From Octopus vulgaris (lineage: Eukaryota), in assembly GCA_951406725.2 (NCBI GenBank), contig OX597831.1, positions 14,508,001 to 14,572,000 of the forward strand: 64,000 nt of DNA. The letters run 5' to 3'. Made by a program: the position numbers and the translations under genes. Positions 15,831-43,737 of this stretch are shown piece by piece. Within the stretch, counting starts at the first letter, position 1; every line of letters begins with the position of its first letter. Under the pieces are notes generated by a model. The model had not been told where the DNA came from, did not search any database, and saw nothing but the letters and a program-made list of their open reading frames with translations.

Positions 15831-15902
15831 TATATATATATATATATATGAAAAAACAAGTCAAAAATAGAAAATGCTAAAATAATTTTATAGTGAACAT
15901 TT

Positions 15903-15940
15903 CAGTACCGGTTTCGGTCATTTTGAGACCTTTTCAACTG
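15903..15940 (-). ncRNA. Minimal type I HHR in the PLE 3' terminus (U3-A8 core variant)
   Basis: Minus strand reads CAG-TTGAAAA-GGTC tcaaaat GACC-GAAA-CCGG-TA-CTG. Confidence 0.8.
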
Positions 15941-16650
15941 TAACGATTAAATAATTAAATTTAGAAAAATTAGAAGAAAAGTTTTTTTAAAAGAATATTT
16001 CTATAGTAATGTTCAGATTTAAGTGGCATTCTGCCTTTCTCTGACTCCCTTGTTTGCACTTGAGTGTTGGAGGTCGTTGTGAGTTCTTGGTAGGGTAGTA
16101 GAGGAAGAAGGCTGGTGAGGAAAGGGGGTGGGAGAATCTGGGAGTGCCCTGATGGTCGTATTTTGAATGGTCAGTGGCGGCTGGCAGTCTCAGTTCAATT
16201 CAGGAGAATATTTATATTGACAGGCTTGTTTATAGAATTAGCGTAGGTGTTATACTAAAAAACATTAGTGACAAAGTTAAGGGGTAGGGGGTGGAGAAGT
16301 AAAAGAAGAAGAAGAAGAAGAAGAAGGAGAAGGAGAAGATGACGATGATGGTGATGGTGGTGATGATTATGACGACGATGATGATGATAATGATGATGAT
16401 GAAGAAGAAGAAGAAGAAGGAGGGGAAGGAGAAGATGGTGGTGATGATGGTGGTGATGATGATGACGACGATGATGATGATAATGATGATGATGAAGAAG
16501 AAGAGGAAGAAGAAGAAGAAAAAAACAGAGAAGGGAGAATATGAATGGGTGTAAGAATAGCTTTGAAGTGGCTGATTGGTAATGGATTCTATGGAGTGTA
16601 ATATTTGTGTGTGTATATATATTTTTCTTTTATTCTAAAGTTGAGGTATA

Positions 16651-17760
16651 TTAATTGTTTGTCGTAGACCCGTTAAGAAGTGGCTTGTATTTTGTAATAA
16701 AGAGATTTTCTTTACTTATTCGTTGTCTCGAGGTTGTATCGTCCCTAAATTGGTAGAGGGGGAAAATTCTGAAGTTTGGTGTTTTTTTGTTGGCGCAAGT
16801 ATCTATGTGTTGGCTAAAAGCTATTTTTCTGTTTTGGGGAATTTTTATCTGGGATCTGTGCAGGGCCATTCGTTTACGCAAACCATTTTTTGTTTGGCCT
16901 ATGTACTGCTCTTGACACCCGGAGCAGGTTAGTGAGTATATTAGGTTCTCCGAAGCACATGTGAAGTTGCTTTTCACTGTAAACCGTTGTCCCTGTTTGA
17001 AGGAGAACTCTGATCCCTCAATTAGATAGTCGCATATCCCGCAATTGGGTCTTCCACATTTTTTTACTGTCGGCTTCTGTGTTGAAGAGTGAATTCGGGC
17101 TTGTGTAAGGAGACTTTTCATGCATCTAGGCTGTCTTTTGCTTTTTATGATCGTGTGTGTTTGGAGGATTGTGTTCATTCTGTGGTCTTTTTTTAGGAGG
17201 GGTATGTTGTGGAGGATGGTGTCGAAGGCTTCGTTATTGAGAGGGTTGTGTGTGGAGATGTATGGTAAGGCTTTTGGTTGTAAGTTTTTCTTTGATTTGG
17301 GATGTCTCAGTTCCTTGATGTTAAGTTGAAGGGCACGTTGAATGCACTTGTCAATAAGTGAAGGTGGATAGTTCCTGGTGATTAGGGTATCTTTTAGTTC
17401 TTGTAGTCGTGTGTCTCTGGTGTTTGCGTTAGAGACTATAGTGCATATCCTTTTTGCTAGATTGAAGGGGATATTCATCCTGGTGTGTCTGGGGTGGCAT
17501 GAATTGAATGGAAGATATTGCTTAGAGTCTGTAGGCTTATAGTATATGTCTGTTTCTATTATATTATTAGCTTTCTTAATGAGGATATCGAGGAAGGGGA
17601 GTTGTTGTTGGCTATATTCCATCGTGAATTGGATGTTTACGTCCAGTCCGTTTAAAATTTTCTGGAATTCTATGAGTTTTTCTATATTTTTATGCCAAAG
17701 GATGAAACAGTCATCTAGATATCTCTTCCAGTTGTTTTCTATGTAGATGGAGAAAGGGTT
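16651..17760 (-). pseudogene. PLE polyprotein C-terminal part (RT palm/thumb, Cys linker, GIY-YIG endonuclease); frame uninterrupted but 5'-truncated
   Basis: The frame extends upstream of the listed Met as NPFSIYIENNWKRYLDDCFILW (YLDD at 17710-17721). Also LPFLDI, YKPTDSKQYL..SCHP, CGRPNCGIC and NLIYSLTCSGCQEQYIGQT..LRKRMALH. The Cys linker resembles Neptune/Naiad-type PLEs. Confidence 0.93.
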
Positions 17761-17814
17761 CTAGAAAGATATGGTTCTAGAAAGATAAGGTTCTAGAAAG
17801 ATATTTAATCGTTA

Positions 17815-17852
17815 CAGTTGAAAAGGTCTCAAAATGACCGAAACCGGTACTG
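17815..17852 (+). ncRNA. Minimal type I HHR in the inverted PLE terminus
   Basis: Same motif as 15903-15940, on the plus strand. Confidence 0.8.
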
Positions 17853-18023
17853 AAATGTTCACTATAAAATTATTTTAGCATTTTCTATTTTTGACTTGTT
17901 TTTTCATATATATCAACTCGTGTGTTCCTTTTCACCCTTATACATATATATATATATATGTATATATATATGTATATGTGTGTGTGTTTGTGTATGTGAG
18001 TGAGTGTGTGTGTGTGTGTGTGT

Positions 18024-21674: not shown

Positions 21675-22163
21675 ATAGATATATATATATATAACCCAGA
21701 GCCTCGGAAGTAGTAACTAGTCAAACGAGGGGTAATGCGCTAGCTACTCGTCTGGCCAAAGAGCTCTCATTTGATTAAGGGATCTTTGGCCCGAAGTTTA
21801 GCCAGTAGATTTCCCCTCGTTTAAGTAATTACTACTTCCGAGGTTCTGTTAGCTATGAAACATATGTAGCCTGAATTTTATCAACACCGTTCCCTAATTT
21901 TGGATTTTTATTTTCATAAACGGGAACCATAAAGTAACTTTTTTTTTAGCTTCTCGAAATTCGATATAGGAAAAAATTTACAACCTTCTACGTAATTAAA
22001 CCTCAACCTGAAAGTTGCTTTTGTTATACCTCCTACGGACTGCTCGAAGCTTAATAATTTTCTACATTCATCCTTGGGGCTTACCTTAGCACATTCATAC
22101 CCCGCCCCTTATAACAAATATTCATCTATGTGAATATGTGTGTATGAATATATATATATATGT

Positions 22164-22218
<55 letters not shown>

Positions 22219-22424
22219 ATTCTCTAAAATGAATATAGACAGTAACTGCTCGACAACATAAGGGACTAAAGCCATCTGAATATGGCTAGGGACAGGGCAG
22301 GGTGGTGGGGGTGTTACTGTTGCATTTAGCCCCAGGCGAACATCGACGTCACCAGAAAGGCTCGACACCGTCACGGTGCCCTAAACCTGCAAAGGGAGGT
22401 AATTCCCCGATGAAGCGGAAACCA

Positions 22425-22470
22425 CACACGGACCATGGTTTCAAGGTGTATTGCCTATCATCGGCGTGTG
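22425..22470 (-). ncRNA. Type I hammerhead ribozyme motif in the inverted monomer
   Basis: Exact reverse complement of 22946-22991. Confidence 0.85.
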
Positions 22471-22945
22471 GTAGGCCTCCGCTTCCTCGACGAATTCTCT
22501 CTCTGCAGGATTTTCTTATATAGATTTTCAAGCAAAATAAATTTGCTGATTTCGAAAATCTGTTCGAAAGCAATAATAATTCTCTAAAATGAATATAGAC
22601 AGTAACTGCTCGACAACATAAGGGACTAAAGCCATCTGAATATGGCTAGGGAATTACCTCCCTTTGCAGGTTTAGGGCACCGTGACGGTGTCGAGCCTTT
22701 CTGGTGACGTCGATGTTCGCCTGGGGCTAAATGCAACAGTAACACCCCCACCACCCTGCCCTGTCCCTAGCCATATTCAGATGGCTTTAGTCCCTTATGT
22801 TGTCGAGCAGTTACTGTCTATATTCATTTTAGAGAATTATTATTGCTTTCGAACAGATTTTCGAAATCAGCAAATTTATTTTGCTTGAAAATCTATATAA
22901 GAAAATCCTGCAGAGAGAGAATTCGTCGAGGAAGCGGAGGCCTAC

Positions 22946-22991
22946 CACACGCCGATGATAGGCAATACACCTTGAAACCATGGTCCGTGTG
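22946..22991 (+). ncRNA. Type I hammerhead ribozyme motif (first direct copy; also 23306-23351, 23666-23711, 24026-24071, 24386-24431, 24746-24791, 25106-25151)
   Basis: Stem I CACACG/CGTGTG; core CCGATGA (U4C variant of CUGAUGA); stem II AGG-caataca-CCT; GAAA; palindromic stem III CCATGG; predicted GUC cleavage after 22985. Confidence 0.85.
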
Positions 22992-25320
22992 TGGTTTCCG
23001 CTTCATCGGGGAATTACCTCCCTTTGCAGGTTTAGGGCACCGTGACGGTGTCGAGCCTTTCTGGTGACGTCGATGTTCGCCTGGGGCTAAATGCAACAGT
23101 AACACCCCCACCACCCTGCCCTGTCCCTAGCCATATTCAGATGGCTTTAGTCCCTTATGTTGTCGAGCAGTTACTGTCTATATTCATTTTAGAGAATTAT
23201 TATTGCTTTCGAACAGATTTTCGAAATCAGCAAATTTATTTTGCTTGAAAATCTATATAAGAAAATCCTGCAGAGAGAGAATTCGTCGAGGAAGCGGAGG
23301 CCTACCACACGCCGATGATAGGCAATACACCTTGAAACCATGGTCCGTGTGTGGTTTCCGCTTCATCGGGGAATTACCTCCCTTTGCAGGTTTAGGGCAC
23401 CGTGACGGTGTCGAGCCTTTCTGGTGACGTCGATGTTCGCCTGGGGCTAAATGCAACAGTAACACCCCCACCACCCTGCCCTGTCCCTAGCCATATTCAG
23501 ATGGCTTTAGTCCCTTATGTTGTCGAGCAGTTACTGTCTATATTCATTTTAGAGAATTATTATTGCTTTCGAACAGATTTTCGAAATCAGCAAATTTATT
23601 TTGCTTGAAAATCTATATAAGAAAATCCTGCAGAGAGAGAATTCGTCGAGGAAGCGGAGGCCTACCACACGCCGATGATAGGCAATACACCTTGAAACCA
23701 TGGTCCGTGTGTGGTTTCCGCTTCATCGGGGAATTACCTCCCTTTGCAGGTTTAGGGCACCGTGACGGTGTCGAGCCTTTCTGGTGACGTCGATGTTCGC
23801 CTGGGGCTAAATGCAACAGTAACACCCCCACCACCCTGCCCTGTCCCTAGCCATATTCAGATGGCTTTAGTCCCTTATGTTGTCGAGCAGTTACTGTCTA
23901 TATTCATTTTAGAGAATTATTATTGCTTTCGAACAGATTTTCGAAATCAGCAAATTTATTTTGCTTGAAAATCTATATAAGAAAATCCTGCAGAGAGAGA
24001 ATTCGTCGAGGAAGCGGAGGCCTACCACACGCCGATGATAGGCAATACACCTTGAAACCATGGTCCGTGTGTGGTTTCCGCTTCATCGGGGAATTACCTC
24101 CCTTTGCAGGTTTAGGGCACCGTGACGGTGTCGAGCCTTTCTGGTGACGTCGATGTTCGCCTGGGGCTAAATGCAACAGTAACACCCCCACCACCCTGCC
24201 CTGTCCCTAGCCATATTCAGATGGCTTTAGTCCCTTATGTTGTCGAGCAGTTACTGTCTATATTCATTTTAGAGAATTATTATTGCTTTCGAACAGATTT
24301 TCGAAATCAGCAAATTTATTTTGCTTGAAAATCTATATAAGAAAATCCTGCAGAGAGAGAATTCGTCGAGGAAGCGGAGGCCTACCACACGCCGATGATA
24401 GGCAATACACCTTGAAACCATGGTCCGTGTGTGGTTTCCGCTTCATCGGGGAATTACCTCCCTTTGCAGGTTTAGGGCACCGTGACGGTGTCGAGCCTTT
24501 CTGGTGACGTCGATGTTCGCCTGGGGCTAAATGCAACAGTAACACCCCCACCACCCTGCCCTGTCCCTAGCCATATTCAGATGGCTTTAGTCCCTTATGT
24601 TGTCGAGCAGTTACTGTCTATATTCATTTTAGAGAATTATTATTGCTTTCGAACAGATTTTCGAAATCAGCAAATTTATTTTGCTTGAAAATCTATATAA
24701 GAAAATCCTGCAGAGAGAGAATTCGTCGAGGAAGCGGAGGCCTACCACACGCCGATGATAGGCAATACACCTTGAAACCATGGTCCGTGTGTGGTTTCCG
24801 CTTCATCGGGGAATTACCTCCCTTTGCAGGTTTAGGGCACCGTGACGGTGTCGAGCCTTTCTGGTGACGTCGATGTTCGCCTGGGGCTAAATGCAACAGT
24901 AACACCCCCACCACCCTGCCCTGTCCCTAGCCATATTCAGATGGCTTTAGTCCCTTATGTTGTCGAGCAGTTACTGTCTATATTCATTTTAGAGAATTAT
25001 TATTGCTTTCGAACAGATTTTCGAAATCAGCAAATTTATTTTGCTTGAAAATCTATATAAGAAAATCCTGCAGAGAGAGAATTCGTCGAGGAAGCGGAGG
25101 CCTACCACACGCCGATGATAGGCAATACACCTTGAAACCATGGTCCGTGTGTGGTTTCCGCTTCATCGGGGAATTACCTCCCTTTGCAGGTTTAGGGCAC
25201 CGTGACGGTGTCGAGCCTTTCTGGTGACGTCGATGTTCGCCTGGGGCTAAATGCAACAGTAACACCCCCACCACCCTGCCCTGTCCCTAGCCATATTCAG
25301 ATGGCTTTAGTCCCTTATGT

Positions 25321-25358
<38 letters not shown>

Positions 25359-25375
25359 CATACATATATATATAT

Positions 25376-25420
<45 letters not shown>

Positions 25421-25422
<2 letters not shown>

Positions 25423-25591
25423 CGCAGGAGTGGCTGTGTGGTAAGTAGCTTGCTAACCAACCACATGGTTCTGGGTTCAATCCCACTGCGTGGCATCTTG
25501 GGCAAGTGTCTTCTGCTATAGCCCCGGGCCGACCAATGCTTTGTGAGTGGATTTGGTAGACGGAAACTGAGAGAAGCCTGTCGTATATATG

Positions 25592-25622
<31 letters not shown>

Positions 25623-25850
25623 TTGTGTGTCTGTGTTTGTCCCCCTAGCATTGCTTGACAACCGATGCTGGTGTGTGTTTACGTCCCCGTCACTTAGCGG
25701 TTCGGCAAAAGAGACCGATAGAATAAGTACTGGGCTTACAAAGAATAAGTCCCGGGGTCGATTTGCTCGACTAAAGGCGGTGCTCCAGCATGGCCGCAGT
25801 CAAATGACTGAAACAAGTAAAAGAGAGTAAAAGAGTAAAAGAGTAAAGAG
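25421..25850 (+). mobile_element. tRNA-derived SINE, family A (representative full copy)
   Basis: Box A (tggctgtgtggt) and box B (ggttcaatccc), internal TA/TG microsatellite, (gagtaaaa)n tail. Other full or partial copies, approximate: 500-910-, 3155-3322-, 4610-5155+, 7150-7310-, 8070-8580+, 13300-13930-, 19040-19380+, 26740-27170+, 30400-30655-, 32290-32460+, 32490-32860-, 37665-37900+, 41265-41605-, 43395-43535-, 52885-53310+, 56915-57320-, 60435-60598-. Confidence 0.88.
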
Positions 25851-42889: not shown

Positions 42890-43048
<159 letters not shown>

Positions 43049-43252
43049 AATCGCTGAACGAGGTATAAACAGTAGCTGCACGACAATGTGAAGTATATTT
43101 GCCACTTAAATGTAGCTAACCACTAAGGGTGGATGCTACTGTAGCTTGTAGTCCCAGAACATCTTCTCCAGTTGGATATTGACACACTTTCTGTGCCCTA
43201 TAAGGTTTTGCAAAGGGAAGCCATCCTTCCCATCGTCGACCTGACGTGATAC

Positions 43253-43295
43253 ACACGGACCCGGGTTTCTGAGTATTTACCCGTCGTCAGCGCAC
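43253..43295 (-). ncRNA. Type I HHR motif
   Basis: Minus strand reads GTGCG-CTGACGA-cGGGTA aa TACTCa-GAAA-CCCGGG-TC-CGTGT; stem I relies on G-U pairs. Confidence 0.65.
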
Positions 43296-43737
43296 GGCAA
43301 TCACCTGTCTTCGAGATCAGTAACTTTTCGTCACTAAAAAAAGGATATGTGTATTTGCATTGGGACCCCTTCGCATCGAAGACTGGTGATTGTCTACGAA
43401 ATCCACTGATAAGGCTTTGGTCTGCCCGAGACTAGAGTAGAAGATACTTACCTAAGGTGCAGTGCAGTGGGACTGAACCTGGAAGCATGTGGTTGGGAAG
43501 CAAGTTTCTTACCACACAGACACTCCTGCGCCTATTGTTAAACAATTCCAGATTCAGAGGAAAATATGAACACCACGACACCACATCTTTCTTGTTGCTC
43601 TTCCGACGGATTTAAGACATTTTGTTTCATATTAATACGAACGGATTATAAAATCGTTAAGTCTGCAACATCAGTGATGCTATTTATAGTCACAAACCGA
43701 TTCCATCAAAATATCTCCTCCATCTCACCCACTCTCT

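Follow-up and report, generated by a model that had tools for sequence, protein, structure and literature searches.

The 360-bp repeat array analysed here lies in a window of 64,000 nucleotides of the Octopus vulgaris genome and is probably a young non-autonomous retrozyme, moved by the machinery of Penelope-like elements (PLEs) from one monomer template, most likely a circle. A link between retrozymes and PLEs was proposed in PMC7229834 and PMC7761336, and the integration of animal retrozymes through reverse transcription of a circular RNA with borrowed PLE machinery is, in the accessible literature, a published hypothesis. In the octopus family both steps have left a signature in the genome: the ends of the insertions mark PLE start sites, and their interior carries single-template variants. 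The start sites are deduced from the fixed ends that are observed, and the single template from the private variants.

The array consists of two arms in opposite orientation, with the features listed below. Positions are those of the window, and phase 1 is the base directly 3' of GUC, the predicted cut.

22148..22212, no strand: (TA)n target microsatellite, left flank (TRF 22148-22215 and sequence)
22213..22652, minus strand: inverted arm, 440 bp or 1.22 units (exact 440-nt reverse-complement match to the unit)
22213..22254, minus strand: terminal PLE-type 'tail', phases 177-218 (42 nt beyond the end point of the direct arm in the unit)
22425..22470, minus strand: inverted-arm copy of the type I hammerhead motif (C at 22431 is the last base before the predicted cut)
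22649..22652, no strand: 5'-to-5' junction of the two arms (4-nt overlap common to both)
22649..25321, plus strand: direct arm, 7.425 identical 360-bp units (0 mismatches at lag 360)
22946..22991, plus strand: first of seven type I hammerhead motifs, found every 360 bp to 25106-25151 (predicted cuts after 22985+360n)
22986..23345, plus strand: one cut-to-cut monomer, predicted 360-nt circle (GC 46.7%)
23186 (22826+360n on plus; 22230 and 22590 on minus): private variant, phase 201, in all 9 copies
25321..25420, no strand: (TA)n target microsatellite, right flank (repeat scan)

The two arms point away from each other, each outer end running into (TA)n. The inverted arm is 5'-truncated at phase 139 and has its 3' end at phase 218, a tail-type end; the direct arm is 5'-truncated at phase 24 and ends at phase 176, a short-type end. 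Any target-site duplication longer than 4 bp would be masked by the (TA)n on both sides. The sequence-only reading of this DNA had described a single array of about 8.6 units. Its 360-bp period was confirmed, with 0 mismatches at lag 360 over 22649-25321, as were the (TA)n tracts at both ends by the repeat scan, but the array is in fact made of the 440-bp inverted arm and the 7.425-unit direct arm with their 4-nt overlap. The reading had thus missed the inversion, which identifies a Penelope-type twin-primed insertion. It had counted 8 complete type I hammerheads: eight hammerhead-like motifs are indeed present, 7 on the plus strand and 1 on the minus strand, and the word complete overstates what is a U4C/U.U variant. 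Likewise, its GUC cut sites at 22985+360n hold for n=0-6 on the plus strand, the eighth GUC being located at 22431 in the minus arm. It was right that there is no credible open reading frame, the 360-bp unit having stop codons in all six frames, and a coding role for the unit was rejected on this ground. An ORF with reverse transcriptase (RT) plus GIY-YIG is absent from the 360-bp unit, so that an autonomous Penelope-like element was also rejected, and tblastn of a PLE protein matched no retrozyme arm. No tRNA was found and a tRNA origin was rejected too.

The ribozyme of the unit has a non-canonical core reading CCGAUGA, a U4C variant, with a stem I of 6 bp, a stem II with a basal U.U and a stem III of 2 bp on the palindrome ACCAUGGU. 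A full hammerhead descriptor (stems I-III, core and palindromic stem III) detected the motif and gave 0 matches in 20 shuffled windows. Searching for hammerheads with Rfam, as the sequence-only reading had proposed, returned no match at the gathering score in the whole window and none at E<=10 in 22200-23400, so that the ribozyme call rests on the descriptor and on covariation. In related families, stems I-III are maintained through compensatory changes and the cores are canonical or of the U3-A8 type; together with the shuffled windows, this speaks against a chance motif. In the sister family, about 70-85% identical, all three stems are kept in this way around a U3-A8 core, a type of core described in PMC4209133, and more distant relatives of the retrozyme exhibit canonical hammerhead cores. 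We infer from this conservation that the ribozyme is functional and probably under selection. According to PMC3088659, the U4C change makes in vitro activity considerably lower and still allows viroid infectivity; an axolotl retrozyme with a basal U.U and a 2-bp stem III is reported in PMC7229834 to cleave better as a dimer. Cofolding pairs two copies of the octopus ribozyme through the palindrome, and the monomer folded as a circle has a minimum free energy of -117 kcal/mol (z -4.8 relative to 100 shuffled sequences). In the flanks of L043, L161 and L069, we met by chance additional hammerhead families whose palindromic stem III is different in sequence; the genome therefore holds many ribozyme repeat families.

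Judged by the features that can be tested on sequence, the octopus element behaves like a non-LTR retrozyme. Such elements are tandem non-coding units of about 150-450 bp without LTR or ORF, here 360 bp, dispersed in multiple copies, with a GC content below 50% and a self-paired predicted circle, all of which are present here. The retrozyme reading, already made from the window, is supported. The metazoan non-LTR retrozymes described in PMC7229834 (mussel, 350-390 bp; axolotl, Rtz_353) have, like the octopus unit, non-coding units, a type I hammerhead, GC below 50% and a self-paired predicted circle, and in HHR_Amex2 of axolotl Rtz_353, as in the octopus, stem III has 2 bp and is closed by a tetraloop, and a U.U is found at the base of stem II. 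The octopus family differs from them by its two inverted arms, its two fixed 3' ends in (TA)n and its U4C core. The two-arm build is not reported in the accessible text of PMC7229834, where the words 'inverted' and 'tail' occur 0 times. Among the titles and abstract starts covered, no account of this family was found, and supplements may list cephalopod examples; neither were twin fixed ends in retrozymes nor array-wide edits, in a scope outside which most subscription journals lie.

The genome searched comprised 2.8 Gb in 227 contigs, representing one haplotype set. It contains 1,391 exact ribozyme motifs. Exact junctions with TA repeats were found 767 times for the tail end (phase 222) and 539 times for the short-type end (phase 176), and the reversed control junction searches gave 0 matches. 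We examined 121 loci: 41 selected by similarity, 60 tail junctions on contig 1 (out of 63, the other 3 being already in the sample) and 20 selected by one variant. After setting aside 26 older loci (<95.5% identical), 95 young loci were left, among which 78 contain a clean inverted two-arm pair and 17 do not. One end at phases 170-179 (about 176) is joined with one end at phases 216-224 (about 222) in 69 of the 78 pairs; no pair (0/78) joins like with like, and the remaining 9 have an end elsewhere. The flanks are TA-rich on both sides in 69/69 of these short/tail pairs, 43 of which come from loci chosen without reference to an end junction. Their two arms are joined bluntly or with a 1-8 nt overlap in 49 cases out of 69. 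Most insertions are short, the median arms being about 184 and 368 nt in the 26 junction-picked pairs; the insertion of the window is among the long ones of a family whose arms reach up to 14 units, and long arrays are 99.4-100% identical to their own subfamily. Since the same build recurs on many contigs, the array is real and not an assembly artefact of the locus.

These results also bear on the sequence-only expectation of dispersed arrays with variable phase, in which partial terminal units would be a sign of rolling-circle copying. The arrays are dispersed as a genome-wide family and the phase is random for the inner 5' ends only; the outer 3' ends occupy two constant positions, separated by about 46 nt, and the reason first given for copying from a circle was therefore in part mistaken. 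The sister family is larger (2,614 candidates; L035:9357-9830, L141-L170) and the loci looked at in it show the same inverted, TA-flanked build. The segment at phases 170-222 is conserved across three families and may be the PLE recognition signal. At L049:4852-5164, about 310 bp lie between the two arms, a junction zone in which pieces of the unit are scrambled and rich in deletions; slipping or switching of template has perhaps occurred there more than once. Neighbouring insertions of independent origin were observed less than 1 kb apart near L047 (C2:64.737 Mb) and about 14 kb apart near L178 (C2:57.27-57.30 Mb).

The fixed two-end pattern is the PLE 'tail' signature of two internal start sites. 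PLE hallmarks given in PMC8557442 are an inverted 5'-truncated copy, a one-sided tail and a microsatellite bias. In the experiments of PMC11167929, purified Poseidon PLE protein nicked AT-rich DNA on either strand and extended both, and reverse transcription began at two positions inside the RNA, by which the genomic tail is defined; these start sites were used without strand preference, and ribozyme mutants were without effect on insertion. In the octopus family, an inverted 5'-truncated copy lies beside the main copy, as in PLEs (78 clean pairs), and the tail is found at one end only in 69/78 pairs, measuring 42-46 nt versus the 30-40 nt described for PLE tails. EN+ PLEs (Poseidon PAc, PMC11167929; PMC8557442) and the Neptune-like PLEs of this genome have in common with the retrozyme the inverted 5'-truncated copy, the one-sided tail, the AT-rich or (TA)n target and a type I hammerhead with palindromic stem III. 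Unlike them, the retrozyme lacks an RT/endonuclease ORF, and it has up to 14 units per arm and the longer tail. MRC1 and other non-autonomous Chlamys PLEs (PMC8557442) are partners of PLEs with multicopy head-to-tail insertions, as here, but they resemble autonomous families at their 3' end and belong to a clade said to be without canonical hammerheads. A preprint on frog retrozymes (10.64898/2026.07.22.740005) comes to the same conclusion, that animal retrozymes depend on PLEs. It argues from co-occurrence and pLTR homology, whereas the octopus case is built on insertion junctions and within-array variants; it puts forward local amplification as the origin of the arrays, includes no mollusc in its sample and, in its accessible text, mentions neither tails nor junctions. 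Dimers are predicted there for the frog retrozymes, with no cleavage in vitro for 8 of 9.

The candidate helpers include a PLE family with open frames of 781 aa, which account for 16 of the GIY-YIG matches among the 148 matches listed. Two full-length copies of this family are 98.9% alike. A C-x4-C-x2-C motif precedes the GIY-YIG domain, and the family appears Neptune-like by the description of PMC8557442. Its loci L211 and L212 are young, with many open frames and a tandemly repeated 3' UTR; L211 carries a long open frame upstream of the RT frame, and some copies of the family end with a tail of about 38 nt. At about 4 kb from the array, the window contains a 5'-truncated PLE (15850-17940, minus strand) whose open frame (16651-17760) covers the RT end and GIY-YIG, 64% identical to the 781-aa family. 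This PLE has a terminal copy in inverted orientation, a tail measuring about 37 nt and a hammerhead of the U3-A8 type, and (TA)n lies on either side of it; having the same build as the retrozyme, it counts in favour of the PLE reading. The unit was compared with 32 GIY-YIG loci, 30 plus the two full-length ones and mostly of one lineage, out of 6,136 candidates. Only 23-26 nt were shared, inside the ORF, which we took as chance. The ends of the PLEs examined have no homology with those of the retrozyme either, so that no helper was identified among them.

The base at phase 201 in the window differs from all 20 loci first compared. An exact genome search for this variant gave 9 matches, all within this locus (direct arm 7, inverted arm 2); the variant being C>A, it supports a single template and not editing. 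Similarly, a variant of L050 has 5 matches genome-wide, all in its own two arms, and other array-wide variants are fixed in 22/22, 13/13, 12/12 and 8/8 copies. A variant present in all nine copies of both arms and nowhere else points to one monomer template, in an assembly of one haplotype set from which the parent array of a 'private' variant may be missing. Only 2 of 138 inner ends fall at phases 1-5, for 1.9 expected, and half of the arms in the 26 junction-picked pairs cross the cut site. Crossing of the cut site without excess stops favours a circle, and a covalent circle would explain both the single-template variants and the read-through. Copying from a circular monomer, as suggested from the window, is therefore upheld by insertion-private variants fixed in all units and by the lack of stops at the cut site. 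Some variants are present in only some units (6/75 loci), so that later or mixed-template events do occur. Two of four read sets, three presumed to be RNA and one of unknown kind, yielded a 390-nt contig that covers one full period (360 + 30, the length expected from a cyclic assembly path). Such a contig is compatible with a circle as well as with a tandem array, of RNA or DNA, and carries no weight here. No data set recorded as RNA was listed among those containing the sequence.

The closest rival to a covalent circle is template jumping from end to end of a single monomer, cut and linear (a nicked circle kept together by stem I). Template jumping is known for non-LTR reverse transcriptases and would explain the single-template variants equally well. 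We nevertheless hold it improbable here, given that the arm ends show no excess at phases 1-5 and that no recurrent indels occur at the cut site in 21 arrays. Distinctly improbable, in our view, is an uncut linear multimer read from an existing array by the same PLE machinery, the ribozyme being weak or idle. U4C and U.U weaken the ribozyme, a multimer likewise gives no stop at the cut site, and unprocessed RNA was the main substrate of an anole PLE in vitro (PMC11167929); against this, variants in every unit would need a parent array, of which the assembly has none for the two variants tested, and a multimer would not explain why arrays of ten backgrounds carry one and the same A>G throughout their units. 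A short PLE-type insertion could also have been enlarged later by local unequal crossover or slippage and homogenised by gene conversion, a satellite route of local expansion being proposed in 10.64898/2026.07.22.740005. Runs or periodic repeats of variants in L178, L182 and L186 speak for it, as do one variant mirrored in both arms of L171 and the shortness of most insertions, in which a seed variant could spread. The high identity of long arrays to their subfamily leaves little time for such a process, however; the phases at which inverted arms have variants in common would not lie within both of two short seeds, and a strand-specific excess of A>G is not what mutation of DNA produces, so that we regard local expansion as highly improbable.

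Fold-back copying of one arm from the other is not favoured as a rule, because the inner phase is shared in only 4/69 pairs and the longer arm can be either one (28 versus 41 of 69 pairs); a mirrored-variant test gave 4/56, with little power. In L182 variants recur five units apart, and in L178 a three-base variant block is found in three scattered units of both arms, patterns which suggest later duplication or a second template.

Array-wide changes, defined strictly as those that differ from the nearest neighbours and are present in at least 2 tandem copies, were counted in an independent sample of 75 loci. On the ribozyme strand, A>G accounts for 9/29 strict array-wide events versus 7/96 single-copy changes (p=2.5e-4), for 7/19 distinct array-wide alleles (p=1.9e-3) and for 10/15 of the alleles in at most 3 loci. 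Strict A>G exceeds T>C by 14 to 2 (p=7e-4), and distinct sites in the independent sample alone by 7 to 2 (p=0.055), the counts being small throughout. The variant 296G has 62 exact matches, grouped into 24 loci; the 22 loci examined carry it on ten haplotype strings, from old to young subfamilies, and it is found in 0/347 copies of other arrays, which makes it neither a single lineage nor an error arising at each pass of copying. The A>G sites are concentrated in the long helix 1-45/282-330 (7/13, versus 13/77 other adenosines, p=0.007). At site 291 in L183, the polarity is ambiguous (A>G or T>G).

We lean towards A-to-I (ADAR) editing as the cause of the array-wide A>G excess that is observed. 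The other explanation, transcription or copying errors combined with selection on RNA structure, concerns this excess only and is a serious possibility, if somewhat on the doubtful side. It would account for A291, which faces C36 and where A>G also stabilises the fold, but hardly for sites 28, 206, 289, 296 and 304, where A-U becomes G.U. Three A>G sites have a 5' G, which ADARs disfavour, and the ADAR 5' neighbour bias at the A>G sites is weak and not significant (p=0.15). Against errors and selection, C>T is absent from the array-wide events (0/50), being the most frequent of the structure-tolerated changes in single copies, inheritance of the genomic single-copy changes predicts 1.1 A>G events versus 9 seen, and in the 20 loci picked for 296G, 8/12 further array-wide changes are A>G as well. 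Copies reading A again at A>G sites amount to 5/123, versus 0/126 at the sites of other variants and 0.09% in the background, the outcome expected of an ambiguous base; compared with private non-A>G variants alone (0/40) the difference is not significant (p=0.34), and the L204 case may reflect a second template. The argument from reversions is further weakened by one in vitro study in which A was the rarest readout of inosine by viral RTs (PMC10877575).

The following mechanism could account for these results. Transcripts of tandem copies would be cut by their hammerheads, probably as dimers, and ligated into 360-nt circles, cutting and circularisation having been shown for coral, mussel and axolotl retrozymes. 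A PLE protein with RT and GIY-YIG, acting in trans, would nick both (TA)n strands, and reverse transcription would be primed from both nicks at two positions within the RNA, lying about 176 and 222 nt beyond the cut. Both cDNAs would run round the same monomer, presumably a covalent circle, and fall off at a random phase; their inner ends would then be joined bluntly or through short microhomology, giving divergent arms with a tail of about 46 nt on one of them. Some templates would carry A-to-I edits, the putative source of the array-wide A>G changes.

That each insertion is the record of one circle rolled up to 14 times per arm, with ADAR inosines written as A>G, is a tentative reading to which we give a little less than an even chance. 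If true, the genome itself would provide evidence that an animal circRNA retrotransposes by a rolling circle, and RNA editing would have a way of mutating a mobile element. If the A>G changes are due to ADAR, edits of a circular RNA become heritable DNA and may drive the turnover of subfamilies. The family supplies two start positions, a target and candidate proteins.

Other repeats were observed in the window. In an older, distant relative of the retrozyme (43043-43350, minus strand), the hammerhead core is canonical, stem III is palindromic and a tail segment that ends in (TA)n can be recognised. An element of about 150 bp with long terminal inverted repeats, MITE-like by eye, is located directly after a (TA)n tract at 21697-21849. 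On the right of the array, positions 25421-25823 are occupied by a SINE-like repeat, which we take to resemble the abundant octopus SINEs.
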